Shown piece by piece: positions 29,452 through 64,000 of a DNA stretch of 64,000 nt. Position 1 is the first letter of the stretch. Every line of letters begins with the position of its first letter. The position numbers and the translations under genes are program-made. The DNA is from Abditibacterium sp. (lineage in GTDB: Bacteria > Armatimonadota > Abditibacteriia > Abditibacteriales > Abditibacteriaceae), in NCBI GenBank assembly GCA_965246885.1, contig OZ251992.1:2496001-2560000 (forward strand), given 5' to 3'. The notes beneath the pieces were generated by a model. The model worked only from the letters and a program-made list of their open reading frames with translations. It made no database searches and was not told the DNA's origin.

Positions 29452-29548
29452 CGTGTTTTTTCGCCCTGCGTATACATTATGCCCAAATCAGGGGCGGCTC
29501 TAACACTTTGCGAGAAAATTTTTTCTAAATCTTTGGAAGAGGGATCGC

Positions 29549-29680: not shown

Positions 29681-30194
29681 GAAAAATCTCTGCGCTTTCG
29701 CCACTCCGTCCTACACTTTCCTGCCGCCACCACCCGCTTGTGATTTCCAGTTCTCCCGCTCCCGCTGAAAAACGCGGCGGGCGCCAAGGGCGCGCGCCCA
29801 TCTCGAAAGAGCTGTTGCCACCCTCGAAACCGACGGTTTCGTCGTGTTGCGTGATGATGGCCAACCTCGACACGTTGCTCGCGCGTCCCGCCGCGCCCTT
29901 CAACTTTGGCACTTCAAACGTGCAGCAAGACCCCCTGCCCTTTCCGCTTTTTTATTCCGCGACGTTTTGGTGAACGACCTCGCGGTTGACATTACCCGTG
30001 CCGTTTTGGGAGAGGGCGTCAAAAACACGCTGTATTGCGGCAACCTTGGCGCTTCAAAGCGACTTGCGCCAGCCAGTGCATCCTGATGTCGGGTAACTAT
30101 GGCCGCGCCCGTGCCATGCACACCGCCATTTCAATTAGTGGCCAATATCCCTTTTGTGAACACCGACACCCACAACGGCGCAACCTAATTTCGG

Positions 30195-30894: not shown

Positions 30895-31164
30895 TCATCC
30901 GAACAGCTTGCGGTCGAAGGCGCGATAGTTAATGGCCTCGGCGACGTGGTGCATCTCGATGTTCTGCGCCCCTTCCAGATCCGCAATCGTCCTCGACACT
31001 TTCAGCGTGCGGTCGTAGCCGCGCCCCGAAAGGTTGAACTGGGCAATCGCCGCCTTGAGCAGGTCTTTGGTCGCGCTGTCCATCTCGCAGTATTCGCGCA
31101 GTTCTTTGGCGCGCATCCCGCCGTTGCAGCCGCCCAGCAAATGCCCGCAGGGACATCCACTCAC
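30895..31164 (-). pseudogene. comM: ComM/YifB Mg-chelatase-like ATPase 3' remnant
   Basis: CPCG motif fused to the C-terminal 'LSGRGYDRTLKVSRTIADLEG...HVAEAINYR' region. N-terminal two-thirds absent and an internal deletion. Confidence 0.85.
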
Positions 31165-33843: not shown

Positions 33844-36800
33844 GTTTCAATCCCTCAAAGCACGATTAAAGGCTACAACGAAGCGAACAAGATCCGCATT
33901 GAATCGAAAAGTTTCAATCCCTCAAAGCACGATTAAAGGCCGCGCTGCTTTTGCACAGCAGCAGTTCGCGCCCGTTTGTTTCAATCCCTCAAAGCACGAT
34001 TAAAGGACGCAGGGAAAGTCACGGGCCTGTCCGCGTTCCTTGAGTTTCAATCCCTCAAAGCACGATTAAAGGTTGAACGCGAACCGGGTGCGTGGGGCTG
34101 TCTGATGTCGTTTCAATCCCTCAAAGCACGATTAAAGGTTCCCCCTTCGATCCTTGCGGCCATCGAAAAAGTCTAGTTTCAATCCCTCAAAGCACGATTA
34201 AAGGTTCAAAGGGCACGTCGAACACAAGCGCACTTGGCCAAGTTTCAATCCCTCAAAGCACGATTAAAGGCCGGTTGCGAGCATCGCGGCGCCGACATCG
34301 TGGCCGTCGTTTCAATCCCTCAAAGCACGATTAAAGGTTACACGAGTCGTTTTTCAATGGCACATGGAAAGCGGAGTTTCAATCCCTCAAAGCACGATTA
34401 AAGGTATAGGCGACTGCACGCCCGTATTTGTCCAAGCGTTGTTTCAATCCCTCAAAGCACGATTAAAGGTTCAAAGGGCACGTCGAACACAAGCGCACTT
34501 GGCCAAGTTTCAATCCCTCAAAGCACGATTAAAGGGCGGCGTCGAAGCCGTCAATAGTCTGCGCGTAGCCGAAGTTTCAATCCCTCAAAGCACGATTAAA
34601 GGCTGCGCCGAAGCTCTCGACGCCGGTGGTTGAGCCGCTTGGTTTCAATCCCTCAAAGCACGATTAAAGGGCCCGCGAGGTAGAGGGCGATGGTTGTCGC
34701 AATGATGGGTTTCAATCCCTCAAAGCACGATTAAAGGGGACAGGCATGTTCGTCGAACGCACCATGTCGCGAACGTTTCAATCCCTCAAAGCACGATTAA
34801 AGGTTGGCGTGGTGGCAACTCGTTCCCGGCTCGATGCGTTTCAATCCCTCAAAGCACGATTAAAGGCCGAATGATGTCGAACGGGCGAAGTATCGGAAAT
34901 TGTTTCAATCCCTCAAAGCACGATTAAAGGGTTCATCATGGAAGTGCTGACCGGGCGGGTCGTGGACGTTTCAATCCCTCAAAGCACGATTAAAGGCGGC
35001 GGTGGCCTTGGCGGGGCCGGTCGGGGTGTTGGGTTTCAATCCCTCAAAGCACGATTAAAGGCCGCACCTCGCCGCCGTTGGCGCGCGAAAGTTCCATTTG
35101 TTTCAATCCCTCAAAGCACGATTAAAGGATCGCCCACGAGCGCCGCCAACTCCTTGCTCATTTCGGTTTCAATCCCTCAAAGCACGATTAAAGGCCGCGC
35201 CTGCACCGCGTCGGGCAGCGCCGCGTGCTGTGTTTCAATCCCTCAAAGCACGATTAAAGGGCTGGAACTGGGCGCCTACGAGGGCGAGAAATCTCCGAGT
35301 TTCAATCCCTCAAAGCACGATTAAAGGAAAGCACTCGAAGACGCTTACACCGGCCAGAAAACAGTTTCAATCCCTCAAAGCACGATTAAAGGGCGGCTCA
35401 TCAAGCGCGTTCTTGGCCCGCTCGAAAAGGGTTTCAATCCCTCAAAGCACGATTAAAGGCGGTGGCCGCTTTCGTCGGTATCAAATTGCGTGAACCGTTT
35501 CAATCCCTCAAAGCACGATTAAAGGTGGTTGTCTTCTACTTCGAGGTCGTAAAGGCTTTGAGTTTCAATCCCTCAAAGCACGATTAAAGGCCATTGACGG
35601 CATCGCCGATTTGTGCGGCAAATTCGTGTTTCAATCCCTCAAAGCACGATTAAAGGGCGCAGATCAGCAGGTAGAGCGCGGCTTCCCGCCATTGTTTCAA
35701 TCCCTCAAAGCACGATTAAAGGGGCCGAACTGGGGCACGCTTCCACCAACTCCATGAGGTGTTTCAATCCCTCAAAGCACGATTAAAGGTCCCTGCTGCT
35801 TGACGAACCGTTCACAGCGGTTCAATGTTTCAATCCCTCAAAGCACGATTAAAGGGTCGGGGTCGCCGCTCCGGGAGTTGTGGCACCGTGCGTGTTTCAA
35901 TCCCTCAAAGCACGATTAAAGGTCCGGCGTCGGGGGTGGGCGTCGCCACGTCAAATGAGGTTTCAATCCCTCAAAGCACGATTAAAGGTTGGTCGCCGTG
36001 TTGTTCGTCGGATCAAACACCACGAGTTTCAATCCCTCAAAGCACGATTAAAGGGGCATCAGTTCAAGCGTCATGTATCCACCCTCTTCGAGTTTCAATC
36101 CCTCAAAGCACGATTAAAGGCTTGCGTGGCGGCGGGGTGCGGGGCGGCCTCGACGGGGTTTCAATCCCTCAAAGCACGATTAAAGGCCGCCCGTAGACGC
36201 GCCGCCCGCGCCCTTACCCCAAGTTTCAATCCCTCAAAGCACGATTAAAGGTTACTCGATCCTCAGCGCCTGCTCTCCGCGCACAGGGGTTTCAATCCCT
36301 CAAAGCACGATTAAAGGCCGTTCTCCTCGATGTCCTTGACTTCGTAGGTGAGTCCGTTTCAATCCCTCAAAGCACGATTAAAGGTCGATGCACAAGCCGA
36401 AGCGAAATGAAGGAATGGCAGTGTTTCAATCCCTCAAAGCACGATTAAAGGAGCGCGAGGATCGCAAAGACGCCGTTTCTATTTTGCGTTTCAATCCCTC
36501 AAAGCACGATTAAAGGCCCCGCGTCGTGGCCTGTCCGGCGTGGCGGTCGCGGGTTTCAATCCCTCAAAGCACGATTAAAGGTGCACCCGGCGACGGACAA
36601 AAACGAGTTTCTCTTCGTGTTTCAATCCCTCAAAGCACGATTAAAGGGTTACTCCGTCCTTGGCGAGATAGGCGCGAAACTCTGTTTCAATCCCTCAAAG
36701 CACGATTAAAGGTCGCCAAGGACGGAGTAACCGCGCACCTATATCGCTATCGTTTCAATCCCTCAAAGCACGATTAAAGGTCGGCAAACGTGGCTCCTGC

Positions 36801-39800
36801 CTCGGTTGCGGCTTGTGGTTTCAATCCCTCAAAGCACGATTAAAGGGCTCTCCTCGCTTGTCGCGTGTTCCTGATAGCGATATGTTTCAATCCCTCAAAG
36901 CACGATTAAAGGTTTGGCTTTATAAAGCCAAACTTAGCGTGTAGTTCGACGTTTCAATCCCTCAAAGCACGATTAAAGGCGGCGCGGCGAGGACGGCATC
37001 GTGTGCAAAGTGCGTTGGTTTCAATCCCTCAAAGCACGATTAAAGGCGTGTTCCGGGTTTTTACCCCAACCCGGAACAAAACCGTTTCAATCCCTCAAAG
37101 CACGATTAAAGGGACGAGATGCCCGCCCGCCCGCTCGTCCTCGATGTCGGTTTCAATCCCTCAAAGCACGATTAAAGGAAGGCGTCAATGTCCGGCTCGT
37201 TGTTCGAGCCGTGTTTCAATCCCTCAAAGCACGATTAAAGGGCCCAGCGCCTTGCGGCTGGCTTTCCCGTCCGGGACAGTTTCAATCCCTCAAAGCACGA
37301 TTAAAGGTTCGGGCAAAGGAATCCGGATTATATGTTGAACATGTGTTTCAATCCCTCAAAGCACGATTAAAGGGCGCGCGCAGGGCAACAGAGATTCGAT
37401 AAAACTCGACGTTTCAATCCCTCAAAGCACGATTAAAGGCACTCTCATCAATCCATATCTTTGAGGCATTGTCAACGTTTCAATCCCTCAAAGCACGATT
37501 AAAGGCAGCAATTCCATTAGAGAAACAATCGTTTGGCCCATTGTTTCAATCCCTCAAAGCACGATTAAAGGTCTCGGCTTGAAAGAGCGGCTTGCGCGCG
37601 AGAACATGTTTCAATCCCTCAAAGCACGATTAAAGGCAGCTGCTACAAAAGCAACTTCATACGCTATAGATGTTTCAATCCCTCAAAGCACGATTAAAGG
37701 TCGTTGTAAAGCTCCTGCTTCACGGGGTCAAACCGGAGTTTCAATCCCTCAAAGCACGATTAAAGGATGGAGCAGATACGCCTCGATCTCCGCGCGCCCG
37801 ACGAGTTTCAATCCCTCAAAGCACGATTAAAGGCGGGTTGCGCCGCACGATGCCCAGTGCCGGATTTGGTTTCAATCCCTCAAAGCACGATTAAAGGGGT
37901 TTGATGCCCGTCACGCGGAACGGGCCGACGTCGGTTTCAATCCCTCAAAGCACGATTAAAGGATCGGCGACACGAGCAAAAGCGTCTTCATCGGGCCAGA
38001 GTTTCAATCCCTCAAAGCACGATTAAAGGGACAAGTTGCCGACGAAGGCGATTCTGTTCGTCTTGTGTTTCAATCCCTCAAAGCACGATTAAAGGTTCGC
38101 CGTGCTGAGTTGGTCGCGTAGCTCTTGAATTGGTTTCAATCCCTCAAAGCACGATTAAAGGGTGCCCGTCCCAGTGCAAAACACTGTTTTCGGCGACTGT
38201 TTCAATCCCTCAAAGCACGATTAAAGGCAGTTTATCATAGATAAGCGTTTAGGTAGAACTCTTTGTTTCAATCCCTCAAAGCACGATTAAAGGTGACTTT
38301 TGAGGAAGCGTGCCGGGACATCGAAGAGTGGTTTCAATCCCTCAAAGCACGATTAAAGGACCTCTAGCGGTACACCATACTGTAAGCCCATGGAAAGTTT
38401 CAATCCCTCAAAGCACGATTAAAGGGCTCGCAGTAGGCGCAAGCATCGTTGTTTGTAGCAAGTTTCAATCCCTCAAAGCACGATTAAAGGAAGCGCGTCG
38501 CCAGAAGCGGGGGGCGCTCCTATGGCCGTTTCAATCCCTCAAAGCACGATTAAAGGAAGCCACGCCGCCGCCGCTTCGCGCGCTGAGGGTCTCGTTTCAA
38601 TCCCTCAAAGCACGATTAAAGGCCCGTGTTCGTCGCGCTGCATCGGAAGCGTCGTGAACGTTTCAATCCCTCAAAGCACGATTAAAGGCGATGTGGCAGT
38701 TCTTTCGGGCCTTCCCGCGCAGGAAGTTTCAATCCCTCAAAGCACGATTAAAGGGCTGTTCGCCCTTCGCCATCGCCGCGTCCACTTTTTTGTTTCAATC
38801 CCTCAAAGCACGATTAAAGGCGAGCAAACGCACATGGAACTGGCGCCGCCGGGAAGCGGTTTCAATCCCTCAAAGCACGATTAAAGGGTTCGTTCGCGCG
38901 CTGCGGCGCTACGTCGGGCGTTGTTTCAATCCCTCAAAGCACGATTAAAGGATGGCGCGCGCGGGGTGCGGCAAGACGTTCTCCATCGGTTTCAATCCCT
39001 CAAAGCACGATTAAAGGGTGCGAGCGGCACTTGGACGCGCACGAAATGGGCGCGGTTTCAATCCCTCAAAGCACGATTAAAGGGCGCCACATCGAGTTGC
39101 ACGGCAAAGCGCCGCTCGTGTGTTTCAATCCCTCAAAGCACGATTAAAGGTTCGTAGGTTCGCCCGTTGTAAGTGACGATGTCGTGTTTCAATCCCTCAA
39201 AGCACGATTAAAGGGGCTCCTCGCTTTGCAAAACGAGGAGCGCGCCACCATGTTTCAATCCCTCAAAGCACGATTAAAGGTTCTTCCGCGTTAACCCTTC
39301 CACTGTGAGCGACGCCTAGTTTCAATCCCTCAAAGCACGATTAAAGGTCGCGCGCGACTTGTTGCCATGACACATCCAACCGCTGTTTCAATCCCTCAAA
39401 GCACGATTAAAGGCGGATAGTTGTCCTCGTAGCGCACGAGAAGCGGGTTGTGTTTCAATCCCTCAAAGCACGATTAAAGGCCGGTTGTGGTCAAAACGGG
39501 GCCGATTGGCTTACTGGTTTCAATCCCTCAAAGCACGATTAAAGGAACGCGCGCGGCGGGATTTTGAGTTCGAGAATCATGGGTTTCAATCCCTCAAAGC
39601 ACGATTAAAGGGATCTGCCGCTCGCTCAGGTCAATTCCGACGTAGCGCGTTTCAATCCCTCAAAGCACGATTAAAGGGCCCGGAGAACCCTCGTTTTGGA
39701 GGATCGTTCGATGTTTCAATCCCTCAAAGCACGATTAAAGGAGCAGTTTTTTCAGCCGACGCCCTACAATCCTCAGTGTTTCAATCCCTCAAAGCACGAT

Positions 39801-42800
39801 TAAAGGACGCGGATGGCACACCGCTTTACCGCTCCGATGTGGGTTTCAATCCCTCAAAGCACGATTAAAGGTTGATGATCGGCACGCCCTTCTTGGCGAG
39901 TGCGACGCGGTTTCAATCCCTCAAAGCACGATTAAAGGAAACCGCCGTTTCCCCATTGGGCGAAGGGCGCAGCGGTTTCAATCCCTCAAAGCACGATTAA
40001 AGGCTTGAGACGCGCCAACGCTTACCCATCCTGACGGCGGTTTCAATCCCTCAAAGCACGATTAAAGGGTAGACCCCGCGAGCGTGCCACCCTACACGCC
40101 ACCCACGTTTCAATCCCTCAAAGCACGATTAAAGGGCGTCAACAGCAAGGTGCCTTTCCATTTCAAGCAGGTTTCAATCCCTCAAAGCACGATTAAAGGT
40201 TAGGATGAACGCCAAACGCTCGCGCTCCTGCGTGCGTTTCAATCCCTCAAAGCACGATTAAAGGGATGGATGCCCAGCATGGCCAAGGCCGCTTTTACGT
40301 TGTTTCAATCCCTCAAAGCACGATTAAAGGTGTGGTGGACGTGCGGCGAGATCGGGCACGTCACCTGTTTCAATCCCTCAAAGCACGATTAAAGGCTCAG
40401 CCATCATCAAAAACCGTGTCGTCAGGTTCTTGTTTCAATCCCTCAAAGCACGATTAAAGGTTGCCGTGTCCGCCGCCGCAAGAGGGGCAGGCTTCGAGTT
40501 TCAATCCCTCAAAGCACGATTAAAGGCTTGTGGCGGCAGGTCGGGCGGGTTGGTGGGTGCGGGGTTTCAATCCCTCAAAGCACGATTAAAGGTCGGTTTA
40601 CTCCAACGTGGACTGCATCACGTCCCCAGTGTTTCAATCCCTCAAAGCACGATTAAAGGTCTGGCGCGCGTTTGGCCTTGAGCAGCGCATCGTGGGTTTC
40701 AATCCCTCAAAGCACGATTAAAGGTTCGAGTGCAACCGCCGCATTTGGGAGGAGATGCTGGTTTCAATCCCTCAAAGCACGATTAAAGGCAGGCGAAGCT
40801 GCCGATGTTCCGGGCGAAACCAAATAGTTTCAATCCCTCAAAGCACGATTAAAGGCAACACCGCGCCGCCGGGCAAGCGCCCGATGAATCGCGTTTCAAT
40901 CCCTCAAAGCACGATTAAAGGAAGGCGCCGAATTGGAGCCGCTCCGCGTAGATAACGAGGTTTCAATCCCTCAAAGCACGATTAAAGGCGTAGCCAAGCG
41001 GGTGCCGTGCTTGCAGGTGATGGGGTTTCAATCCCTCAAAGCACGATTAAAGGGAAGGCGATGTTGACAAGGTTGCCGTTGGTCAGCGTGTTTCAATCCC
41101 TCAAAGCACGATTAAAGGGCGCATGATTAAAAACGCAGTTAAAACACGCACTCGAGTTTCAATCCCTCAAAGCACGATTAAAGGTTCCATGACGGTTCGT
41201 CTATGCGCCCCGTCGTTTTGAGTTTCAATCCCTCAAAGCACGATTAAAGGTTAGGTCGTAAACCTCGCTCGTGGTGACTTCGAGGTGTTTCAATCCCTCA
41301 AAGCACGATTAAAGGAGGTCGGCGAGCTTTTTGAGGCCGCGCGACAGGATGTGTTTCAATCCCTCAAAGCACGATTAAAGGGAAATTTGTTCTGTTGTCA
41401 TGATTGAATTAGCTCCAGTGTTTCAATCCCTCAAAGCACGATTAAAGGCACACGCCGCAGCGCCCGTGCCCCTCGTTGCAAAAAGTTTCAATCCCTCAAA
41501 GCACGATTAAAGGGGGCTTTCATGGGGCACGCCCGCACTTCCCGAACAGGGTTTCAATCCCTCAAAGCACGATTAAAGGATGCGCTTGCCGACGAAATCC
41601 GCGCGCGGCGATTGGTGTTTCAATCCCTCAAAGCACGATTAAAGGCCACGTTCCACAGCAAACGATCAACCATCGAGGAAGTGTTTCAATCCCTCAAAGC
41701 ACGATTAAAGGGCGGAACGCCGGTGCCGGATAGTTTTGCAACTCTTGGATGTTTCAATCCCTCAAAGCACGATTAAAGGCTGTAGGACAGACTCAAAGAT
41801 CTTACACAAACTACAAGTTTCAATCCCTCAAAGCACGATTAAAGGTGGCGTTGGCTTCCAAAGCAGCCGCATTAACCGAACGTTTCAATCCCTCAAAGCA
41901 CGATTAAAGGCACGCGGCGAGTAGTGCGGGCGCGGCGGCGATGAGATGTTTCAATCCCTCAAAGCACGATTAAAGGTACGGCGCCACCACGCACAGATGA
42001 CGCATGAGGAAATGTTTCAATCCCTCAAAGCACGATTAAAGGTGCCCCTCTCGCGCATGTATCCAAACGCACGCGCGAGGTTTCAATCCCTCAAAGCACG
42101 ATTAAAGGTTTACCGCGACCCGAAGGTACTGTGGAACAGCGACGAGTTTCAATCCCTCAAAGCACGATTAAAGGCCCGCTCGACCCGGCACGGCGAACCG
42201 CGCGTTTGACGTTTCAATCCCTCAAAGCACGATTAAAGGGCTGTCGGTGCGCTTCGCGGCGGGGGGCACCATTCAAGTTTCAATCCCTCAAAGCACGATT
42301 AAAGGCCGACGCTGCGCGACGAGGGGCTAACCACCGAAGCGGGTTTCAATCCCTCAAAGCACGATTAAAGGTGGCTACGCTGTCCACGACCGATGCGCGC
42401 TACACGCCTGTTTCAATCCCTCAAAGCACGATTAAAGGTCGCGTCTTCGTCGCTCGTTTGAGCGTCCGGCACCGGTGGTTTCAATCCCTCAAAGCACGAT
42501 TAAAGGCGGCTTTTTTGCCGCGCGCGGCAGCGACGCTCAGGAGTTTCAATCCCTCAAAGCACGATTAAAGGAGGCGATCACGAATTTGATCAACGGCATT
42601 TGCGGGCGTTTCAATCCCTCAAAGCACGATTAAAGGTCACAATGCCCGTCAGGAAGTCGATTGTTTTGGGATGTTTCAATCCCTCAAAGCACGATTAAAG
42701 GATTATGCCCCGGCAAAACGTCTTTACCTTTAACGCAGTTTCAATCCCTCAAAGCACGATTAAAGGAGCGGCCTTCACACTCGCTTCTTCTTGGTCAGAG

Positions 42801-45800
42801 AATGTTTCAATCCCTCAAAGCACGATTAAAGGTCCTCGGCGGCGGCTTTGGCGGCGTCGGCCTCTTGCGTTTCAATCCCTCAAAGCACGATTAAAGGTCG
42901 TCTTCATGGACGAGATCGAGAAGCAGTTCGGCGTTTCAATCCCTCAAAGCACGATTAAAGGGTCGGACGAGGGCGCCCCGTCTGGCAGCACGCAGAGTTG
43001 TTTCAATCCCTCAAAGCACGATTAAAGGGAGTTTGGCATTTCCTTTGTCTACCTTCTTTTCTATAGTTTCAATCCCTCAAAGCACGATTAAAGGGCGTCT
43101 TCTACCGGGACAAGGAAACGAAAGAGGAAAGTTTCAATCCCTCAAAGCACGATTAAAGGTTGCGATAAGTCCGACTATGAGCAATGCTCAGATAGGTTTC
43201 AATCCCTCAAAGCACGATTAAAGGGGCGGGGCGACGGCGAGAGCCGCGCACCCCCGAACGGGTTTCAATCCCTCAAAGCACGATTAAAGGTGCCGCCAAC
43301 ACCCCAACGGCCAACCCCCCGGAGCGGAGTTTCAATCCCTCAAAGCACGATTAAAGGTAGCTCCTCAGCGTGTGCGGTTGCGGCGTTGGCCGCTGTTTCA
43401 ATCCCTCAAAGCACGATTAAAGGGCCAGTTTTGCCGGAGGTTCCGGCGGTTGGGATCATTGTTTCAATCCCTCAAAGCACGATTAAAGGAACCTTAGTGC
43501 CATCCGCGCTGTATTGCACGAGCGCGGGTTTCAATCCCTCAAAGCACGATTAAAGGGGCATACACCTCGATTTCGCGCAGGCTGGCCGCTTCGTTTCAAT
43601 CCCTCAAAGCACGATTAAAGGTCGTGCAACCAACACCGGGGTTTTGGGAAGTGAATTGGTTTCAATCCCTCAAAGCACGATTAAAGGCGGGCGCGCCGGG
43701 CCTCAAATAGTCGGGCGCCGATGGGTTTCAATCCCTCAAAGCACGATTAAAGGGGCCACCATATATGGCCGCAGCGAAGGCATCGGCAAAGTTTCAATCC
43801 CTCAAAGCACGATTAAAGGACCAATAGTGATTGGCAGCACCGCGTTGAGACGTTCCAGTTTCAATCCCTCAAAGCACGATTAAAGGTTGAGCGCGCGGAG
43901 CATCGGCTCGACTTTGAGTTGGTTTCAATCCCTCAAAGCACGATTAAAGGTAACTCCCATTTATTCACGCCTTGCGCCGCGTCGTCGGTTTCAATCCCTC
44001 AAAGCACGATTAAAGGCGGCGTTTTAAACGTGAAATTGGGTGATTGATTCGATGTTTCAATCCCTCAAAGCACGATTAAAGGCTACACCTTACTTTGGAG
44101 GAGCGTTCACTCTCACTCCGTTTCAATCCCTCAAAGCACGATTAAAGGCACGATGACGCAATCCGTGTTGCTGTAGACCGCGCCACGTTTCAATCCCTCA
44201 AAGCACGATTAAAGGGTATAAAACCCAACGTCAACATGAAGCGCCGCCGTGTGTTTCAATCCCTCAAAGCACGATTAAAGGAAAGTAGCACGACTTGACA
44301 TCGTAGAGCGTGGCGTCGTTTCAATCCCTCAAAGCACGATTAAAGGTTGCCATTGCAGGCGCCGGCTGCTGCTGCCGCAATCTGTTTCAATCCCTCAAAG
44401 CACGATTAAAGGCTGCGCTGGCGATTTTTTGATGCTGCTCGACGCTGAAGGTTTCAATCCCTCAAAGCACGATTAAAGGTCGAGGCGCCAATACGATTGG
44501 CGGGCATCAACGCGCGTTTCAATCCCTCAAAGCACGATTAAAGGTGCTCATGGCGTCTCAGGTGTAACCAATCCGACTAGGTTTCAATCCCTCAAAGCAC
44601 GATTAAAGGCAGTAAGAAGTTAAGAGTCTTCTCCATGTAAAAATTTGTTTCAATCCCTCAAAGCACGATTAAAGGATGGAGATTTTCCAGCCCAGTTCTA
44701 CACGGCAGACGAGTTTCAATCCCTCAAAGCACGATTAAAGGGCTGTTGAGGGGGCCCAAGCCGTGCCTGGCGATTTCGGTTTCAATCCCTCAAAGCACGA
44801 TTAAAGGTAGATTCTGGAGCATCCGTTGTGCCGTCTCGCCTTGCGTTTCAATCCCTCAAAGCACGATTAAAGGCTGTATAAGTTGGCGAACCTGTTCCCC
44901 GACTCGAAAGGTTTCAATCCCTCAAAGCACGATTAAAGGGCCAACATTTCGCTTGTGGGCGCGGCGGTGTGCGGCGTCGTTTCAATCCCTCAAAGCACGA
45001 TTAAAGGTTCAAGGTCGCGGCGCGCGACGCGGGCGGCGTAAGCATGTTTCAATCCCTCAAAGCACGATTAAAGGTTTCCGATACGGACTCCACGCGAGAA
45101 CAGGAGAACAAGTTTCAATCCCTCAAAGCACGATTAAAGGTCGAACTCAAAATCCCGCCCCGCGCTTTCGAGCGGCTGTTTCAATCCCTCAAAGCACGAT
45201 TAAAGGCTTGCCCCGCGTGGCGTGAACCGTCACTATTTTAATGTTTCAATCCCTCAAAGCACGATTAAAGGTCCTCGGCGGCGCCCTTGTCGCGCCGCTC
45301 GGTGTCAGTTTCAATCCCTCAAAGCACGATTAAAGGGCGGCAAGCATTTTGTCCGCGTTCAGTCGCGCATGTTTCAATCCCTCAAAGCACGATTAAAGGG
45401 CGTGGTTTTGCCTCTTTTGCCAGCGCCAGCGCCCAGTGTTTCAATCCCTCAAAGCACGATTAAAGGGCCGCGTGCCGTAAGCGCGCCCGCGCTGCCGCCA
45501 AAGTTTCAATCCCTCAAAGCACGATTAAAGGTTTGGAGGGCGCGTTCGAGGCCCGCGACGACTTCGGGGTTTCAATCCCTCAAAGCACGATTAAAGGCCA
45601 ACAGATACTCCTTGTAGTGTTGGCACGCTTCTTCGTTTCAATCCCTCAAAGCACGATTAAAGGCGATTTCGCGCCCGCCAATGGTGTAGCCAGAACGCTG
45701 TTTCAATCCCTCAAAGCACGATTAAAGGTTGTCCGGCGACTCTGGCCTTCCATCGGGCACCGGGTTTCAATCCCTCAAAGCACGATTAAAGGCAATCTTG

Positions 45801-47911
45801 AGTGGAAAGATTTCAGGCTTGCTGTCGGGTTTCAATCCCTCAAAGCACGATTAAAGGCGATTTTCAGGGCTACACCGCGAGCGTTTCGGGAGTTGTTTCA
45901 ATCCCTCAAAGCACGATTAAAGGCGAAATCATGCGGATGGGGGTAGGTGTCCTCGTTTATGGTTTCAATCCCTCAAAGCACGATTAAAGGTCGGCACGCT
46001 TCATCAAAAGTCATCGGTGCTTCTCCCTGTTTCAATCCCTCAAAGCACGATTAAAGGCGCCAGAAGCCGGGGCGGGCGCGGGGCGCAGCGAGGAGTTTCA
46101 ATCCCTCAAAGCACGATTAAAGGTTGCTTAGCTCCTGCGCCACCTGTCCCCACCCGCGAGTGTTTCAATCCCTCAAAGCACGATTAAAGGGCTCGTCAAT
46201 GGTGCGACAGGCGCGAATTGTTTCCTGAGTTTCAATCCCTCAAAGCACGATTAAAGGGCGCCCTCGCTCATCACGTCTGCGTCGCCTCGGCGACGTTTCA
46301 ATCCCTCAAAGCACGATTAAAGGGGCGCCGAGCAGCAGAAACACGCGAAAGTGCGCGAACGTTTCAATCCCTCAAAGCACGATTAAAGGGCGCAATCGAA
46401 GAGTTGCAGAGCGAAATCTTCGACCTGGTTTCAATCCCTCAAAGCACGATTAAAGGCGGCTTCTCGGCGACGGGTTTCCACCATAGATGTGTTGGTTTCA
46501 ATCCCTCAAAGCACGATTAAAGGTTGCCTATTCCGCGAGCATCCCAAAACTTTCAAATCGCGGTTTCAATCCCTCAAAGCACGATTAAAGGCGCGTGGGA
46601 TTTTGAGGCGCGCACTATCACCGTTGGTTTCAATCCCTCAAAGCACGATTAAAGGACATTCAGAAGCCGCCGCTTCGACCGACGCCGGGAGATGTTTCAA
46701 TCCCTCAAAGCACGATTAAAGGACTATGCAAACACCATCACGAAACGAAAGGCACGCTCCGTTTCAATCCCTCAAAGCACGATTAAAGGCGCGATGGCGC
46801 CGGGGCAACTGAGCGCGGGCAACGCGGGTTTCAATCCCTCAAAGCACGATTAAAGGCAACGAGCCGAACAACACCATAAGCTTGGCCGATTACGGTTTCA
46901 ATCCCTCAAAGCACGATTAAAGGTGGCGACTTCGTCTTCGCCGGCGTGCCGTACGACAAGGTTTCAATCCCTCAAAGCACGATTAAAGGTTGTCGTGGAA
47001 ATCCACACTGAACCCCGGCAGTTCGAGTTTCAATCCCTCAAAGCACGATTAAAGGTTGATGAACCACAGGCCGTATTCATGTAAATCGAGGTTTCAATCC
47101 CTCAAAGCACGATTAAAGGCATCATGTGGCCCTGCGCGATCCACACCGGCGGCTCGGTTTCAATCCCTCAAAGCACGATTAAAGGAGGTATGGAAATCCG
47201 GTAAGATTCCTTTCACCGGCCAAGTTTCAATCCCTCAAAGCACGATTAAAGGAGCCACCATCTCCACCAACCTCGCAGGAGTAAGCGGGTTTCAATCCCT
47301 CAAAGCACGATTAAAGGGGGCGGCTTTTCGGTCGCGTCCAACGCGCGCAAGTGTGTTTCAATCCCTCAAAGCACGATTAAAGGGACCGAGGCGAGAACTT
47401 CTACACCTGCTTGCCTACGAGTTTCAATCCCTCAAAGCACGATTAAAGGGGCCCGTCATATTGGCGCTCTTCGGGCCGGGGAACATGTTTCAATCCCTCA
47501 AAGCACGATTAAAGGTCGCGCCGCGCTGTTTTGCTTCGCGCCGGGTGCCACTTGTTTCAATCCCTCAAAGCACGATTAAAGGGGATGGTGGCGGTCGTGA
47601 GGCGCGTAGCCGTGCCCGCGTTTCAATCCCTCAAAGCACGATTAAAGGAAGTGTGGAGCGACATCATGCTCGACGCGGCGTGGGTGTTTCAATCCCTCAA
47701 AGCACGATTAAAGGACGGGCAGGAAGTTGTTGAAGGTGCGCTTCACTGCGTGTTTCAATCCCTCAAAGCACGATTAAAGGCGACTAAGCGGCTCTTGCCG
47801 TTGCTGCCTTTGCCTGTTTCAATCCCTCAAAGCACGATTAAAGGTGGAAGCGCGCGGGTCTCACGGTTCGGGTCGAGGCGAAGTTTCAATCCCTCAAAGC
47901 ACGATTAAAGG
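33844..47911 (-). CRISPR. CRISPR array, about 214 repeats of 29 bp (plus strand GTTTCAATCCCTCAAAGCACGATTAAAGG) with spacers of about 34-39 bp
   Basis: Period about 66 bp over 14 kb; count estimated by hand. The reverse complement ends in ATTGAAAC (type I-B-type handle), so it is transcribed on the minus strand from the cas2 side. Confidence 0.99.
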
Positions 47912-48822: not shown

Positions 48823-48867
48823 TGGGAGCTCCGGTTGAGATGACCGGCGGACAAAGGTGGGTGAACA

Positions 48868-49075
48868 ACTCACCCGATCGGACGGATGACTCACCCGACT
48901 GAACCAACGACTCACCCGGTCGGGCGAGTCGTCCGCCCGGTCAAACGAACGATTCGCCCGGTCGGGTGAACGACTCGTCCGACTGAACCAATGACTCACA
49001 CGGTCGGGTGAACCACCCACCCGGCCAAACCAATGATTCACCCGACTAAACGAATGATTTGCCCGACCCGGCGCG
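48868..49075. repeat. Degenerate 21-bp tandem repeat (ACTCACCCGRYYRRRYGAAYG-like), about 10 units, between cas4 and cas1
   Basis: In-phase units at 48868, 48889, 48910, 48931, 48952, 48973, 48994, 49015, 49036 and 49057. Confidence 0.85.
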
Positions 49076-58732: not shown

Positions 58733-59446
58733 CTATCTAACCGCACGTTGGCGGGCGATGTCAAGAGAGCGGGTCACCCAACGGGCGGGCCAGCCGCGAT
58801 TCCACAGCAAAAGGCAGAGGGTGGTGCGGGCGGGAATTTCCTCTGGCGGGGTTTGGGCGGTGATGGCGGCGCCGCGTTCGAGGAGGGCGGGGAGCGAGAA
58901 GGCGTCGCCGGTTCCCCAGCGCGACGGGGGCAGGGCGTCGGGGCCGACGAAGACTTGAGCGTAGAAGCGAATGGCGCGGCCATCGGAGCGGGCGGCGCGG
59001 CGGAACAGGTCGGCGAGGCGATGCTTGACGCCGATGAAGCCAAAACCTAACTCGCCGCTTCGTTCAATTACCCCGGCTTCCCACCCACCGGTGGCGCGCG
59101 GCGAGGTGGCGAGGGCGGCGCTCCATAAGCGCGCTTCCCCCTCGTCCAAGCGCGGGTCGCCCGCCGGGTCAAGTTCCATCGCCGCGCGCGCCACTTCGCA
59201 AAACAGCCGCGCAAGCGGGCCGCGTTGTTGAGGATGCACGCCAAAGCGCCACAACTCTTCGCCCTGCGCGAAAAACGCCGCGCCGCACCACTCCCCGAAG
59301 CGTTCGCACATCGCTGCCGCGTCGGGGCGCGCATCTTTGTGAGCATCGAACCACGCTTGCCACGCTGCGGCGCCCGCGTTGAAGGCGCGCCGCGACTCGA
59401 ACAGCGACTCGTCTTCAGGGCGGGCGAAACGGGACAGCGTCGTCAT
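58733..59446 (-). CDS. Hypothetical protein, last gene of the ZorAB-like operon
   Basis: 237 aa ORF with ATGA overlap to the MotB/OmpA-like gene; no recognisable motif. Confidence 0.7.
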   Translation of the reverse strand: MTTLSRFARPEDESLFESRRAFNAGAAAWQAWFDAHKDARPDAAAMCERFGEWCGAAFFAQGEELWRFGVHPQQRGPLARLFCEVARAAMELDPAGDPRLDEGEARLWSAALATSPRATGGWEAGVIERSGELGFGFIGVKHRLADLFRRAARSDGRAIRFYAQVFVGPDALPPSRWGTGDAFSLPALLERGAAITAQTPPEEIPARTTLCLLLWNRGWPARWVTRSLDIARQRAVR

Positions 59447-60339
59447 CGGGCGGCATCCTTCATCAAATGCTGGACGCGCGCTTCGGCTTGGAGGGCGGAA
59501 GAAAGCGACGCGAGCAGTTGGTCAAGGGGCGGCGCGTCGCGCTCGGTGTACTCGATCTTGAACTCGACAACCGGCAAGCGCCGCACTTGGTCGCCGCGCC
59601 CCGAAGCAATCACCCACGCCGACGGCAACACACCCAAGCCCGCGTTATACGGCTCGCGCGCGGCCTGATACTCTTGCAAGTGCCACTCGTGGAAGCGCTT
59701 TGGATCCCAAATCTTGGCGACTTTGGCCCGATAGTCCACCTTGTCGCCGTCGGGAGTGCGCGTCGTGAGGAAGCGAAAAATCGGGGACTTGTAGTCTTCG
59801 GTCACGTCGCCCAGAACATGCGTCTGGCTCCAGAACGCGCGGATTTTTTCGGCGCGCGCTTGCGAGAGGGGCCAGACATCCTTCTCATCCGGCGCGGCGT
59901 GGCCTTCGATGACGATGGATTTGATGCGCGAACGTTGGAGGAGGAGAACGCGCCCGAACGCGCCCAAGACTTTTTGCGCGGCGCTGGGCGCGGCGAAGAC
60001 GGTGGAGTTGTGCCCGAAGTCGAGGCGTCCTTGCAAGAAGCGGAAGCGTTGGATGGTGCCGTCGTCCTCGACTTCCAGCACGTCGCCGATTTGGTATTTG
60101 CTTTGGTTATCGGGCGCGCGCTGGTTCTTGATGAGACCCGCCCCCGACAATTGTGAGATGAGCGCGTTAGCGATGGCCAAGCGACGCGCGTCGCGCTGGG
60201 CGATGAGTTCCATCTGCTCCGAATACACCGTCGTCGAAAGCAGAAACAGCGCGATGATGCACACGAGCGACACCATCACGTCGGCCAGCACCACGAACGG
60301 ATTGGCGAAGAACTCGAACGCTCCGCGTTTACGTCTCAC
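59443..60339 (-). CDS. MotB/ZorB-like protein: single TM with conserved Asp plus OmpA-like domain
   Basis: PFVVLADVMVSLVCIIALFLL TM; IVIEGHA...WPLSQARAEKI; IASGRG; RRLPVVEFKI. GTG 60339 overlaps the upstream TGA (GTGA). Confidence 0.82.
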   Translation of the reverse strand: MRRKRGAFEFFANPFVVLADVMVSLVCIIALFLLSTTVYSEQMELIAQRDARRLAIANALISQLSGAGLIKNQRAPDNQSKYQIGDVLEVEDDGTIQRFRFLQGRLDFGHNSTVFAAPSAAQKVLGAFGRVLLLQRSRIKSIVIEGHAAPDEKDVWPLSQARAEKIRAFWSQTHVLGDVTEDYKSPIFRFLTTRTPDGDKVDYRAKVAKIWDPKRFHEWHLQEYQAAREPYNAGLGVLPSAWVIASGRGDQVRRLPVVEFKIEYTERDAPPLDQLLASLSSALQAEARVQHLMKDAAR

Positions 60340-62072
60340 GAACGGCTCCCCGGCCACGAAATAACGAGACCCTTATCCAACCGGGCGGTTGAAGCGCGCA
60401 TTTGGGCGACTTGCACATTCAGGGTGTGCACTTGCGCGGCGATGGACACGACGTTGGCTTGCAGGTTTTGCGACACCTGCGCTGCGCCGCGCAGTTCGTC
60501 GCGCAACGTTTCGACTTGCGCACCGACGCCGTTCAGCCCGCTTAGCGATTGGCCCAGCGACTGCGGCAGTTCGCGCACGATGGCCTCGCGCAGTTCGCCG
60601 CGCAATCCAACGAGCTCTTGCCGTACCTCGCTCACGTTGTCGCCCACGCGCTTGAATCCGGCGCCCTGCCCGTTTTCGATGAGCAGGAGCGGCTCGTTGC
60701 CCAGCGACGCCGGAAGCGCCAAAATCGTTTCTTCGACGCGCAACGCATATTCGCCCATGCCGTCCAGCACGGCGCGGAATTGGTCGAGCAGCAGCTTTTC
60801 GCTTTGGACGCCGCCCTCAATGGCGTCGGATACGCGCAGCAGACCGCGCGCGATCTCCTCGCGTAGCGTCGAAAGCGCGGTTTGTGTCGCGGCCTTCATG
60901 TCGGCGCCCAGCGACAGGGCGGAACTTTGCGCGTCGCGCGCGAGTTGTTGGCTCGACAGCGCGGATTCGAGCATCACGCCGTGTGTTTTAGCGTTTTCGG
61001 CCAGCAGTTCGCGGCGCAGTTCGCCCAATTCCACGAACGTGCGGCCCGCGCCCAACACGGCTTCGCGGAGGGCGCCCAGACTTTCTTGCCCGGCGCTGTT
61101 CCATTCGCGCGTCGCGCTGCCAAGCGTTTCGCCGTGCGTTTGGATGGTGCTTTGCAAGTCGCTTAAACCGCCCGCGAGTTGGCTGGACGCACCCGCGAAA
61201 CCCAGCGCGGCGCCGTCCAAGGTATCGGCGGACGCCGCCAAACTTTTGGCGATGGCCTCGTTCGCCTCGCGCAGTTCTTTGGCGCTCGCCCCCACGCTTT
61301 GCAGCGATTCTAGGGCGCTGCCAATGCCCTGCGTGAAGCCGTTGGCGATGATTTCCATCCGCTTAACCGCCGCTTCGAGGCGCGGCAACTCTTCGGTGCG
61401 CTCCATCATTTGTGCGGCGAGTGGCTCGATTTCGAGCAACGAGAACTCCTCGACTTCCTCGCGCAAACGCTCCCAGCCGCGCTCTTGGGCGTTGATTTTA
61501 CCGGCCAAAACGAGCGTGAAGCCCACGCCCGCCGCCGTTGACCCAAAGGCCGCGCCCATGCCGCCGAACACCGCCGTCATGTGCGCGACGACTTCCTTTA
61601 GGCCCGTCGCCGCCGAAGTTTCCGCCGCGTTGCGTCCGACCAGAAACGCCAGTTGCGCCACCGCCTGTCCCAAGCAAACGAGGGTTCCCGCCAATCCGAT
61701 GAACACAAAAGCGCCTTGCCAGTAGCGCGCTTCTTCGGTGACGGCGTAGAAAATCTGCGGAAGCGTCGCTTCGGGGCGGCGCGAGCGGTTGCGCGAGGTG
61801 AGCCGCGCGCGCTTCCACACGAGCGTATTGGTGACTAGCACAGATCTGAGCTTGTCCACGAGCGCCGCCGCGTTGTCTCCGGCGGCGCGCGACTCTTCGA
61901 CCAGCTTCGCGGCGCCATCCAGCGCCGCGCGCTCGATGGACAGCGCTTCCGCGAGCGCGTTCAGTTGCGCGTTTTGCCGTTGAAAACGCACGAACAGGTA
62001 CAAGAACACCCCCGCGACGATGGCCAGTTCAACCAAACCCGCCGGGGTGAGAAAGGGGGAAAGCCAGTTCAT
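60336..62072 (-). CDS. MotA/TolQ/ExbB-like (ZorA-like) three-TM protein with long helical cytoplasmic tail
   Basis: TM1 near residues 10-29; FIGLAGTLVCL and GMGAAFGSTAAGVGFTLVL channel motifs; about 370 aa Ala/Leu/Ser/Gln-rich heptad-like tail. Confidence 0.82.
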   Translation of the reverse strand: MNWLSPFLTPAGLVELAIVAGVFLYLFVRFQRQNAQLNALAEALSIERAALDGAAKLVEESRAAGDNAAALVDKLRSVLVTNTLVWKRARLTSRNRSRRPEATLPQIFYAVTEEARYWQGAFVFIGLAGTLVCLGQAVAQLAFLVGRNAAETSAATGLKEVVAHMTAVFGGMGAAFGSTAAGVGFTLVLAGKINAQERGWERLREEVEEFSLLEIEPLAAQMMERTEELPRLEAAVKRMEIIANGFTQGIGSALESLQSVGASAKELREANEAIAKSLAASADTLDGAALGFAGASSQLAGGLSDLQSTIQTHGETLGSATREWNSAGQESLGALREAVLGAGRTFVELGELRRELLAENAKTHGVMLESALSSQQLARDAQSSALSLGADMKAATQTALSTLREEIARGLLRVSDAIEGGVQSEKLLLDQFRAVLDGMGEYALRVEETILALPASLGNEPLLLIENGQGAGFKRVGDNVSEVRQELVGLRGELREAIVRELPQSLGQSLSGLNGVGAQVETLRDELRGAAQVSQNLQANVVSIAAQVHTLNVQVAQMRASTARLDKGLVISWPGSRS

Positions 62073-64000
62073 CAGGTGAAATCAAACGGCACGGGAGCTT
62101 CAGGCGCGGCAGAGGGTGTTGGCGCGGCGGGCGGCATCGGCGCGTACGTGGGTGGATAAGTGGGTGGCATCGGCGCCGCGTTGGACGGGGCCGTCGGGTA
62201 AGTGGAGTGAGGCGCCGCATGAGTGGGCGCGCGGGGCGTAGGCACACCATTAGCGCCGGGAAAAGGCGCGACGACGGGTTGCTCTGGGGCCAGCAAGTTA
62301 CGGTCGAACGGTGCGTTGAGGCGGGCGCTCAGTTCGCGGTCGTTTTTCCAATACCCGCACAATAGCTCGAACGCTTCGGCGGGTGTGAGACGGGCGGCGC
62401 CAGCCCCTTGCGCGCTTGCGGTCGTGTTTGGCCCATCTTTTTCGTAGCGCGTCGAGAAGCGGCTGGGCGTGCGCCAGAAGCCGAGGCTTTCGCTGTTGCG
62501 ATACACCCATTCCAAACCTTGAGCGGTGCTTTCGACGCCCAAACGGAGGCGCACGCGCTTGATGTCGTCTTCAAGGCACTCTTGGAAGTCCGGATAATCG
62601 CGCAAAGTCGTCGCCGCTTCGCGCAAGTCGGGCGGCAGATGGAGCGTGTGACGCCCCGGAGCCAACTCTTTGGCGGGCGAATAGACCCACCCGCTCGCGC
62701 TTTGCTTGACCAGAATCCCCGCTTCCGTTCCGTCGCGCGACAGGCCGCGCCCCTACAAAAGCAGCCCTTGGCGCCACGACAATTTGCCGTCGCGGTCGCC
62801 GTCGAAGGGCATCCATTTGACATCGGTGCGCGCGTGGACGAACAGCTTCTCGCTTTCAAGCTCGAACGATTGGCGGCAGTTATTGCCTTCCAGTTCGGGT
62901 GGCTGAAAGCCAGTCACCATTGGAAGCGAGAAGCCGCCGAGGGCGCGCACCAGTAGCAAGTCTTGGGGCGTTGTGCTTTCCTCGAACTGCATTCGGACGC
63001 CACCATCGCGCATCCCTTGAAGCGTATTATAAGCGGCGCCCGCTTTGGTTCCCGCTTGGCTGGGCGCGTTTTTGGCGCCTTGAAAAAACACCAAGTCCAC
63101 CTCGTTGGCGCCGGTCAGTTGCACTAAGCCACTGGTGCGATTGAGGCCCAGCTTGACGGCGCTTTTATCGCGCACATCGCGCAAAAGCGTGGCATTGCCG
63201 ATTTCGGGACGCGCCAACACCGATTCTTGCAAAAGCGGCGAGAACGTCGAGCGGAAGGCGCGCGCCATCGTTTCGGCCTGAAGGCGCAGTTCGCGCGTCA
63301 GATCCTCGCCCGCCGCGCGCATGGCGACGCCGTCCACAAAGTAGGTGCCCAGTTGGGTTGGCTCGCCCGATGCCGCGTCTACATGGGGCAACGCGTTCCA
63401 CCCGTGCGCAAAAGCGTTCTGCGCGCGCAGTTTGGCCTCAGGCCCCGCTTGATTCCAAAAGGCGAGGAAGCGCGCCTCAATAGTGCGGTTCGGCTCGAAG
63501 AGGGATTCGCCGTTGAGAATGGGCTTGGCCTCATCTATTTTGGCGAGCTTGCCCGCCAGAATTTCGCGCATCTGGCGCGCCCGCGCAACGAGGGCGGTGT
63601 CGTCGTTGCCACCCGCGCCCGCGATGTGGGCTTTCATGGTACGGACGAGGGGGAGCAAACGCTCGCACAGCATCCGTTCGGGCGCAAGGAGCATGGAGTC
63701 TAAGCGCTTGCGATAGGCGGATTGCGCGGCTTCGGAGTAGCCGACCAGTTCTCGCTCGATGGCGCGTTTGCGGCCAATGAACAGCGCCACGAACGGGTCG
63801 GTCGCGCACGCTTCGACGCGTGAGCGGGCGGCAGCGAGGGCGTTCTTGGCGCTCTTTTGGCTTTTGTCGAGCGCGTCGGCGCCTGCCCCAGAACCCAACT
63901 CCTTGGCGCGGTTTTCCAGCCATTTGGCCGCTTCGCCCAAGATGACGTCACACCAAACGGGGCCGCGATTGGGGTCGCGCAGTGCCAGTTGGATTTCGCG
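62072..64000 (-). pseudogene. C-terminal part of a large, probably tubulin-like (Tubulin_2/FtsZ-like) protein, interrupted by one in-frame TAG at 62753-62755
   Basis: The frame is open from the window edge (REIQLALRDPNRGPVW...) to TAG 62753 and continues in the same frame (GRGLSRDG...LAPGRHTLHL) to 62072, ending in a Pro-rich tail with TGATG overlap. 'DP..GP' and 'LLLVRALGGFSL...FVHAR' resemble Tubulin_2-protein C-termini. The GTPase domain is not in the window. Confidence 0.5.

Follow-up and report, generated by a model that had tools for sequence, protein, structure and literature searches.

The two genes that follow a tubulin-like (Tubulin_2/FtsZl1) gene at the end of the window, by which we mean the whole 64,000-nucleotide stretch of Abditibacterium sp. 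DNA that was analysed, very probably encode a stator pair of the MotAB/ExbBD/TolQR/ZorAB kind. The pair is an optional module of Tubulin_2 clusters, and it is likely to work with the tubulin cluster that it adjoins. A listing of tubulin, MotA and OmpA genes as a trio has been known since 2010; what is added here is the reading of that trio as a motor.

The unit forms the end of a nine-gene cluster in which all listed genes lie on the minus strand, as read from the open reading frames of the window and of extended sequence, into which the cluster continues for about 8.8 kb past base 64000. The gene order is Hsp70-like ATPase (extended coordinates 70210-72804), GrpE-like (68967-70202), double zinc ribbon (67373-68962), vWA-like anchored protein (65921-67348), small membrane protein (65467-65913), tubulin, MotA, MotB and a helical protein. 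The tubulin-like gene begins outside the window, at extended coordinate 65437 (L001:5753-8437), and occupies 62753..64000 within it, ending after 894 residues (62753-65437) at an in-frame TAG (62753..62755). Behind this stop lie a C-terminal piece of the same gene (62072..62752, 226 codons, with a possible restart at TTG 62665), the MotA/TolQ/ZorA-fold subunit (60336..62072, 578 residues), the MotB/ZorB-type subunit (59443..60357, 304 residues, or 298 from the likelier start) and a 237-residue all-helical protein, a candidate adaptor (58733..59446). The initial annotation had described four frames that overlap one another at ATGA, GTGA and TGATG. The overlaps and three of the frames (58733-59446, 59443-60357 and 60336-62072) stand, and the likelier MotB start, GTG at 60339, overlaps the MotA stop as GTGA; the fourth, called a large helical protein, is not a single frame, being split by the TAG. 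A promoter and terminator scan gave a signal near the level of shuffled sequence.

The MotA-like protein has three hydrophobic transmembrane helices within residues ~10-195, followed by a helical cytoplasmic tail of about 375 residues, in agreement with the three-helix MotA/ExbB type and long tail proposed earlier. The profile of its family matches TolQ (E 3e-9) and ZorA (8qyh, E 7.5e-8). A predicted model of residues 4-229 finds its best fold matches in TolQ and ExbB (Z 11.3 for the latter), and matches ZorA 8qyd at Z 10.9 (rmsd 2.9, 179 residues aligned). Thr130 and Thr179 align with TolQ Thr145 and Thr178; the first is invariant in 11/11 rows and the second, judged by eye, is present in 10/14. 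The MotA/ExbB transmembrane fold and polar threonine ring of stator A subunits are both present, and A subunits span 392 to 690 residues across 15 loci. When metagenomes were scanned with the close MotA alignment, 596 pattern matches came up, none of which was confirmed.

The partner had been described as a MotB-type transmembrane protein with an aspartate and an OmpA-like domain, and the evidence agrees. Its single transmembrane helix contains the motif NPFVVLAD with Asp26, the conserved aspartate that marks stator B subunits, and its OmpA-like peptidoglycan-binding domain reaches a Pfam E of 1.7e-5, just short of the cut-off. The aspartate and proline of the helix are invariant in all 12 aligned rows. 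The family profile matches MotB 6ysf at E 1.6e-16, with Asp26 aligned to the MotB aspartate, and ZorB at 6e-10 (8vvn) and 1.4e-6 (8qyd).

A tubulin-like product had been suspected for the upstream gene, and the sequence beyond base 64000 contains the Tubulin_2 GTPase domain (PF13809, E 1.4e-46). The protein has the layout of FtsZl1/Tubulin_2 proteins: an N-terminal FtsZ-like GTPase domain (residues 6-351) with a GGGTG(S/T)G-type loop (GGTCSG at 175), a coiled coil and a helical C-terminal domain, the end of which is cut off by the TAG in this genome. The gene is single-copy in the genome. The piece behind the stop aligns with residues ~890-1130 of full-length relatives, all 14 of which, where aligned, read through the position of the TAG; it is the sole stop among 31,070 aligned columns, with none other in 78 aligned loci. 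The premature TAG is real. Judged from sequence, the system is probably impaired in this genome: ~230 residues are missing from the end of the tubulin, and the motor genes coupled to it may suffer a polar effect of the stop. Because the tubulin gene is interrupted, this copy is a poor test object. Assembly error was considered and rejected, as contigs of two runs (from one study; one run may be the source) carry the TAG. Recoding was likewise rejected, as 302 of 1,288 long open reading frames end in TAG, no CUA tRNA was called and the 78 aligned loci hold no other stop. Our literature search found no experimental study of FtsZl1/Tubulin_2 proteins.

Among the genes at the other end of the cluster, the Hsp70-like assignment is the firmest, with a nine-row profile that matches DnaK at E 1e-19 and invariant DFGT and GGTTD motifs. 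The zinc ribbon match (DZR, E 0.002) lies under the cut-off. The GrpE-like and vWA-like proteins have no match of their own, and both assignments are weak: aligned relatives of the former match GrpE (E 0.003 and 0.001), and a 17% identical counterpart of the latter matches VWA (E 3e-5), while the protein itself has no DxSxS motif at the aligned position. Profile searches of the PDB with the vWA-like, GrpE-like and zinc-ribbon proteins returned nothing significant.

The motor family was found in 18 of 301 genomes of the phylum, 11 of these matches being circular because the seeds were drawn from tubulin loci. Of the seven non-seed matches, two lie directly behind a tubulin gene, one directly before an Hsp70-like gene, two in another system, one at a contig edge and one with TerY-P. 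At E <= 1e-10 the family comprises 1,302 clusters, and for 6 of the 10 top proteins looked up the source is apparently shared with a tubulin match. Tubulin, MotA and MotB remain linked in distant relatives of two phyla, in several gene orders: the motor stands behind tubulin in this genome (G000) and in L009, L013, L105, L106, L109, L111 and L130, after the Hsp70-like gene in L012, before the whole cluster in L010 and facing it in L124. In a tubulin tree of 80 rows, a single branch of 32 rows (SH-aLRT 94) contains every one of the 18 loci with a motor, and motor presence requires 9 changes, compared with a shuffled mean of 16.4. Tubulin and MotA distances are correlated across 15 loci (rho 0.49, reached in 0/2000 permutations), a value that includes any contribution of host ancestry. 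Within the motor-bearing branch, 14 of the 32 rows lack a motor in the stretch fetched. The motor is thus dispensable, which counts against the mechanism we favour below. Two tubulin clusters of the same genus lack it. Tubulin_2 genes are present in genomes G009 (95% complete) and G011 (87%), where neither motor gene of this family has a match, and no MotA or OmpA match came from the genes after tubulin in L108, L110, L118, L122, L132 or the proteobacterial L018 and L048. In L154 (genome G041), the same MotA/MotB family is found co-oriented directly behind a complete TerY-P triad of TerY, two kinases and PP2C (PADLOC TerY, PP2C, STK_OB), which is absent from the window's cluster. The TerY-P triad has anti-phage activity.

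The association had been put forward as new, and in this respect it has a precedent: supplement 5 of Makarova and Koonin (2010; PMC2875224) lists FtsZl1, MotA/TolQ/ExbB and OmpA genes for two Deinococcus species. Both D. deserti proteins are members of the families described here: the MotA-like one matches our alignment with a probability of 98.9% and the OmpA-like one with 99.9%, NP(F/Y)xxxxD motif included. The Deinococcus operon (DR_0540-DR_0534; Deide_2p00760-00810) shares the order anchored protein, small membrane protein, FtsZl1, MotA/TolQ/ExbB and OmpA family. The cluster described here differs in its additional Hsp70-like, GrpE-like and zinc-ribbon genes, in an A subunit of 578 rather than 411 residues, and in a 237-residue helical protein where Deinococcus has a leucine-rich-repeat protein and a kinase. 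Cyanobacterial FtsZl1-B7-COG1360 rows of the same source look parallel, by their listing alone. In its available portions, that paper assigned the OmpA proteins a beta-barrel or porin-like nature and described no motor; it doubts that FtsZl1 retains filament-forming elements, and one of its reviewers raised the objection that FtsZl1, being cytoplasmic, would have no access to these OmpA proteins. If the OmpA neighbor is a MotB that acts with a long-tailed MotA, the pair spans from wall to cytoplasm, which answers this topological objection. In the literature searched, including PMC12505986 and 10.64898/2026.10.19.760177, no paper presents FtsZl1 together with ZorAB or MotA as a motor; such a statement may exist in bioRxiv supplements, subscription journals or the source data of PMC7159879, all outside that scope. 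The motor reading should make the coupling testable in D. radiodurans (DR_0536-DR_0538).

The motor cluster shares one segment of about 42 kb with CRISPR-Cas and toxin-antitoxin genes. The segment is bounded on the left by a 3' remnant of comM/yifB (30895..31160, minus strand), of which 241 bp are 99.6% identical to comM, and on the right by the full comM gene (extended 72928-74535, named by TIGR00368); the 26 bp ahead of the comM match correspond to comM CPCG codons with one mismatch. A search for its integrase gave three tyrosine recombinases elsewhere but none within it, and no serine recombinase. The neighbors reported initially are indeed present, namely a type I-B CRISPR-Cas system with 214 repeats and two adjoining loci of toxin-antitoxin type. 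Among the 213 spacers, one partially matches the genome, outside the cluster. The argument from position to an anti-phage role was overstated, since across loci the context is weak (defence neighbors at 4/17 versus 1/18 loci, p = 0.18, not a significant enrichment).

Gene content, folds, motor residues and linkage are established, and the explanation that best accommodates them, in which our confidence falls just short of even, is a swappable envelope-sensing stator that signals to a tubulin/Hsp70 assembly. By analogy with Zorya and MotAB, the MotA-like and MotB-like proteins would form an ion-driven stator, probably of 5:2 stoichiometry. The OmpA-like domain would anchor it to the cell wall, and the tails of its MotA subunits would come together in the cytoplasm as a rod some 50 nm long. 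The stator would serve as an optional sensor module of the Tubulin_2 cluster: disturbance of the envelope, by phage puncture or other attack, would cause it to bind the wall and conduct ions, and its tail may then recruit or nucleate the tubulin-like GTPase, either by itself or by way of the 237-residue protein. Recruitment of soluble effectors by motor and tail has been described for Zorya (PMC11946911, PMC11890865). The Hsp70/GrpE-like pair may assemble or reset the tubulin complex. Contact between tail and tubulin, polymerisation and defence are steps that we infer. The likeliest purpose would be a local defence or damage-containment response, although anti-phage defence as the output has somewhat less than an even chance. 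The pairing with TerY-P and the segment shared with CRISPR-Cas and toxin-antitoxin genes were counted in favor of this explanation. The cluster encodes neither a nuclease nor any other effector that could be recognised, a point against it.

A somewhat unlikely reading has no part for defence: a tubulin/Hsp70 scaffold, placed or driven by the stator and its tail, would remodel the membrane or wall to give vesicles, septa or appendages, in line with the remodelling hypothesis for FtsZl1 of Makarova and Koonin (PMC2875224). Tubulin_2 is widespread, being present in 109 of the 301 genomes, and fills entire families (f15, 14/14), a spread that counts against defence and is more like that of an inherited cell function. 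Remodelling also accords with the mostly non-defence neighbors, with TolQ and ExbB matching as well as ZorA, and with the lack of an effector domain. It is opposed by the patchiness of Tubulin_2 within the genus (3/12 genomes), by the differing chromosomal sites of its clusters and their occurrence on plasmids (9 records), by the joining of the same motor family to TerY-P, and by the breakage of the system here without loss of the lineage.

It is improbable that the motor and its small helical neighbor form an independent module, carried along with the tubulin cluster but not acting on tubulin, with the 237-residue protein as its effector. The repeated gain or loss of the motor, its pairing with TerY-P and the presence of a small gene 3' of MotB in G000, L009, L010, L012 and L013 would fit such a module. 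Against it, the third genes are barely alignable (16-24% alike outside the close pair), L109 and L111 have no evident counterpart, Deinococcus has its leucine-rich-repeat protein instead, and overlapping, coupled genes bind MotA to the tubulin gene. The four-gene unit proposed initially stands for tubulin, MotA and MotB; the 237-residue gene is kept only among close relatives, with three homologues besides itself and one in G021. The protein gave no match in Pfam, PADLOC or NCBIfam; its model is all helix (pLDDT 67.5), fold searches returned generic helical matches only (best Z 7.0, uninformative), and most of its matches in the Atlas, where recognition stayed below threshold, were clusters without a name. 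Predicted as a complex with this protein, the MotA tail (225-578) gave a score of 0.00, which weighs neither way.

The ZorAB-like architecture noted initially is upheld by fold and profile matches (ZorA 8qyd, 8qyh; ZorB 8vvn). With ZorAB of Zorya types I-III (8QYD, 8VVN, 8VVI), the pair shares a three-helix A subunit with a long helical tail and polar threonine ring, and a B subunit with a transmembrane aspartate and an OmpA-like wall-binding domain. It differs in forming a separate sequence family outside ZorA and ZorB and in lacking a beta-hairpin in the modelled cytoplasmic domain, for which the model is of low confidence. As reported at the outset, no Zorya effector is visible: none of ZorC/D/E/F/G was matched by the 10 proteins scanned or by a 148-residue protein, and a ZorD1 and a ZorE2 model, each searched genome-wide with working controls, had no match; a ZorC search gave no matches, its controls being likewise silent, in a genome that is 92.7% complete. 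The idea that tubulin stands in place of ZorC/D/E does not hold as an obligatory arrangement, as most Tubulin_2 clusters have no motor and one relative pairs the motor with TerY-P. By these searches the locus matches neither a defined Zorya subtype nor an ordinary ExbBD/TolQR system, the two outcomes against which the initial annotation had set its reading. An orphan ZorAB, or an ordinary ExbBD/TolQR/MotAB stator, that landed beside a tubulin gene is very improbable: weak PADLOC matches of the window proteins (E 1.7e-4 to 0.02; best 0.019 for ZorA and 1.7e-4 for ZorB) and the top fold matches to TolQ and ExbB speak for it, but none of the 50 relatives scanned, of 150 listed, beat E 3e-12 on any ZorA model, the OmpA-like domain of the partner and the long-tailed 578-residue A subunit are unlike ExbD/TolR and ExbB/TolQ, the cluster has no TonB/TolA match, the genome carries a separate ordinary MotA_ExbB gene, and the linkage recurs in two phyla.

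The cluster also resembles the GAP1-N2/DO-GTPase systems (PMC7159879), predicted conflict systems near the membrane with tubulin-like, vWA, HSP70 and GrpE genes. There, in the available part of the paper, tubulin and HSP70-GrpE are separate themes, whereas here they are joined in one cluster; DO-GTPase, GAP1 and FNIII genes gave no Pfam match in the cluster, and the main text of that paper contains neither "MotA" nor "Zorya". More speculatively, and on balance unlikely, Zorya may be just one application of long-tailed stators, which would be interchangeable envelope sensors of general use. This family would plug into tubulin/Hsp70 clusters and TerY-P; in the tubulin clusters, an ion-driven rotor would trigger local polymerisation of a tubulin-like GTPase where a phage enters or the envelope is damaged, giving an immune response that is cytoskeletal, controlled by a motor and free of any nuclease. 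If true, Zorya-type sensing would extend to cytoskeletal output. A phage collection yielded one weak, unannotated match to the tubulin domain.

The gene preceding the motor pair extends beyond the window and encodes a tubulin-like protein. On the reverse strand, ORF calling placed a 237-aa protein at 58733-59446, a MotB-like protein of 304 aa at 59443-60357 and a MotA-like protein of 578 aa at 60336-62072, joined to one another by ATGA and GTGA overlaps, and the TGATG at 62072 is the end of the gene preceding the MotA-like ORF. In the genome sequence, the tubulin-like frame starts at extended coordinate 65437 (numbering continued past the window edge), and five further co-oriented genes reach 72804, with comM next. 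The cluster thus comprises nine genes: Hsp70-like, GrpE-like, zinc-ribbon, vWA-like anchored, small membrane, tubulin-like, MotA-like, MotB-like and 237-aa; the closest named relatives are Abditibacteriaceae. The initial annotation had described four overlap-joined frames; the ATGA, GTGA and TGATG overlaps are present, but the upstream frame is interrupted by a TAG. Its proposal to look past 64000 for a Tubulin_2 domain was borne out by a PF13809 match over residues 6-351 (E 1.4e-46), with a GGTCSG motif at residue 175, in what is the sole copy of this gene in the genome.

The in-frame TAG lies at 62753-62755. This position is read through in all 14 aligned relatives, of 1079-1135 aa (14 of the 15 closest non-self matches; P0014, of 695 aa, was left out). 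Contigs from both listed sequencing runs carry the TAG with no differences at a depth of 34-35, the runs being two samples of a single study, one of which may be the source. Furthermore, the 31,070 columns aligned to relatives over 78 loci contain no other stop, and in the host genome TAG serves as an ordinary stop codon. Because of these results, we conclude that it is a genuine nonsense change. The system is damaged in the window genome; the nearby cas1 (partial) and cas4 (two pieces) are damaged too.

The MotA-like protein itself gave no Pfam MotA match. MotA_ExbB matched 7 of its 11 scanned relatives, 5 of them above the cut-off, with only the best five families covered for two of the non-matching ones. 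A profile of 11 N-terminal regions matched TolQ at E 3e-9 and ZorA at E 7.5e-8; it aligned Thr130 and Thr179 with Thr145 and Thr178, the ion-coupling residues of TolQ. The structure model had a mean pLDDT of 53, better in the N-terminal part; of the 29 Foldseek rows shown, 28 were TolQ, ExbB or ZorA and none reached E <= 0.001, and VIA-align gave Z of about 11 against ExbB, ZorA and TolQ. Since four unrelated helical bundles scored higher, the modelled fold supports the relationship but does not prove it. The MotB-like profile matched MotB (E 1.6e-16) with the Asp aligned, and this Asp is invariant across 12 aligned rows, so that the MotA/MotB-type pair with a transmembrane Asp described initially was upheld. 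The 237-aa protein is all-helical, has few homologues and showed no specific resemblance in fold comparisons.

With its wall anchor, Asp, Thr ring and long tail, the pair is of the stator type. According to PMC11946911 and PMC11890865, the Zorya motor and its tail recruit effectors upon envelope disturbance. By analogy, the MotA tail would recruit or nucleate the tubulin-like GTPase, and the Hsp70/GrpE-like pair may act as assembly or reset factors; a tail-tubulin contact, a tubulin polymer and a role in defence are what we infer. The original observation is real and the guess built on it correct in outline.

A segment of about 42 kb that holds the cluster also contains a WYL gene, a type I-B CRISPR-Cas operon with a 214-repeat array beside it (window 33844-47900), a PIN/HTH pair and a TacA-like antitoxin, which agrees with the position beside CRISPR-Cas and toxin-antitoxin modules reported earlier. 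One boundary is a near-identical 241-bp copy of the 3' end of comM, together with 26 bp of comM CPCG codons that a deletion has joined to the last 79 codons (window 30895-31160); the other is comM itself (extended 72928-74535). The segment looks like an island in comM, an integration hotspot; no integrase was found within these bounds. The Cas7 of the operon (527 aa) has a large insertion, and 21-bp tandem repeats occur at window 29527-29694 and 48863-49072, the second set lying where the damaged cas1 begins.

To look for defence genes, we examined at most 8 flanking genes at each locus: 104 proteins at 18 motor loci (taken as 17, L011 and L160 being near-identical) and 128 at 18 motorless loci. 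Generic matches (kinase, ABC ATPase, methyltransferase, cysteine desulfurase, QueC, ankyrin, TPR, radical SAM, trypsin) were excluded by judgement. Clear defence neighbours occurred at 4 of 17 motor loci (Cas genes; a type IIG restriction enzyme; TerY-P; an AAA ATPase carrying DUF2357, read as McrBC-like) versus 1 of 18 motorless loci (TIR), p = 0.18. PMC2875224 proposes membrane remodelling, taking the OmpA proteins as barrels, and in its supplement 5 DR_0538-0536 and Deide_2p00780-00800 appear as FtsZl1, MotA/TolQ/ExbB protein and OmpA protein; the D. deserti MotA-like and OmpA-like proteins belong to the families of the window motor. In PMC7159879, tubulin and HSP70-GrpE genes are assigned to predicted conflict systems, and MotA is unmentioned in the main text. 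Envelope remodelling instead of defence, which the former proposal favours, is a rather unlikely alternative. Our literature search found no paper reading the tubulin-linked MotA/OmpA pair as a Zorya-like motor. The proposed new system is a new variant of an apparently untested operon type, the type itself being already listed in PMC2875224.

Tubulin_2 occurs in 109 of 301 phylum genomes and the MotA family in 18 (E <= 1e-12), 11 of them being either seeds or nearly identical to one. Among the other 7, non-seed genomes, the motor lies directly behind a tubulin gene in G062 and G181, directly ahead of an Hsp70-like gene in G262, where the contig is short, and at a contig edge in G086. In G041 (L154:8864-16051), it follows a complete operon of TerY, kinase, PP2C and kinase in the same orientation, and the fetched stretch contains no tubulin gene; this TerY-P operon is a second output for the motor family. 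G021, the sole match among 60 relatives, repeats the tubulin-MotA-MotB-unknown order, and its tubulin is intact at 1109 aa. We retrieved flanking sequence for 60 of the tubulin matches and for 49 other loci and built a quick tubulin tree of 80 rows, omitting 2 duplicate loci, short domains and 33 of the 38 loci L018-L055. All 18 motor-labelled rows (L010 and L011 near-identical; L136 with only a MotA start at a contig end) fell within a single 32-row branch (SH-aLRT 94, below the starred level), intermixed with 14 motorless rows, a label that applies to the fetched stretch. Nearest in this tree, L007 and L008 carry the six upstream genes, but no motor follows; in the same-genus genomes G009 and G011, neither motor gene of this family had a match. 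Distances among tubulin, MotA and MotB correlated over 15 loci with rho of 0.49, 0.47 and 0.32, host kinship being ignored. The motor pair is thus repeatedly linked to a single branch of Tubulin_2 clusters, and its position varies while it remains with the cluster. An independent passenger module is an improbable reading. Because many clusters lack it and it also serves TerY-P, the motor is best viewed as a swappable input and not as the core of the cluster.

No Zorya effector was found in the cluster proteins scanned, as the reported lack of ZorC/D/E had indicated, and genome-wide nothing matched one ZorD1 and one ZorE2 model, with working controls. ZorC also gave 0 matches genome-wide, but its controls were equally silent. 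The MotA family comprises 1,302 clusters at E <= 1e-10, the best ZorA-model score among 50 of the 150 listed members was E 3e-12, and in the Atlas, proteins of Deinococcota, Bacillota and Cyanobacteriota make up the nearest clusters, ahead of ZorA-like ones. On these sequence comparisons, the family is large and apart from Zorya, and the window system is not a Zorya subtype by membership; an orphan Zorya or an ordinary Tol/Exb system is hardly credible.

Other arrangements were also seen. Zinc-ribbon MotA-like genes without a MotB of the motor family occur in the non-seed genomes G142 and G070; at L158:8255-15454 and L159:9070-19021 such genes, likewise without this MotB, adjoin very large membrane-anchored proteins and are another uncharacterised system. 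In a different Tubulin_2 branch (L108, L110, L118, L122, L132), genes of about 700-800 aa with no telling Pfam match follow tubulin, with membrane helices predicted in 4 of 5, and a transglutaminase-like gene comes next in L122 and L132. The mostly proteobacterial L018-L055 have the order about 500 aa, about 510 aa (2 TM), about 135 aa (3 TM), tubulin, about 300-420 aa and about 240 aa; the gene pair scanned in L018 and L048 matched DUF533 and TonB_C, not MotAB. Membrane-anchored trypsin-like proteases follow the tubulin genes of L014/L134 and L119, in L014 with an Hsp70-like gene thereafter. Elsewhere in the window genome (G000), two ARAGORN 'tRNA-Stop(tta)' calls (G000:C1:1435707-1435791 and 3354297-3354378) share palindromic flanks and have the look of a repeat element, and a 76-nt tRNA with a TCA anticodon at position 351206 is short for a selenocysteine tRNA.
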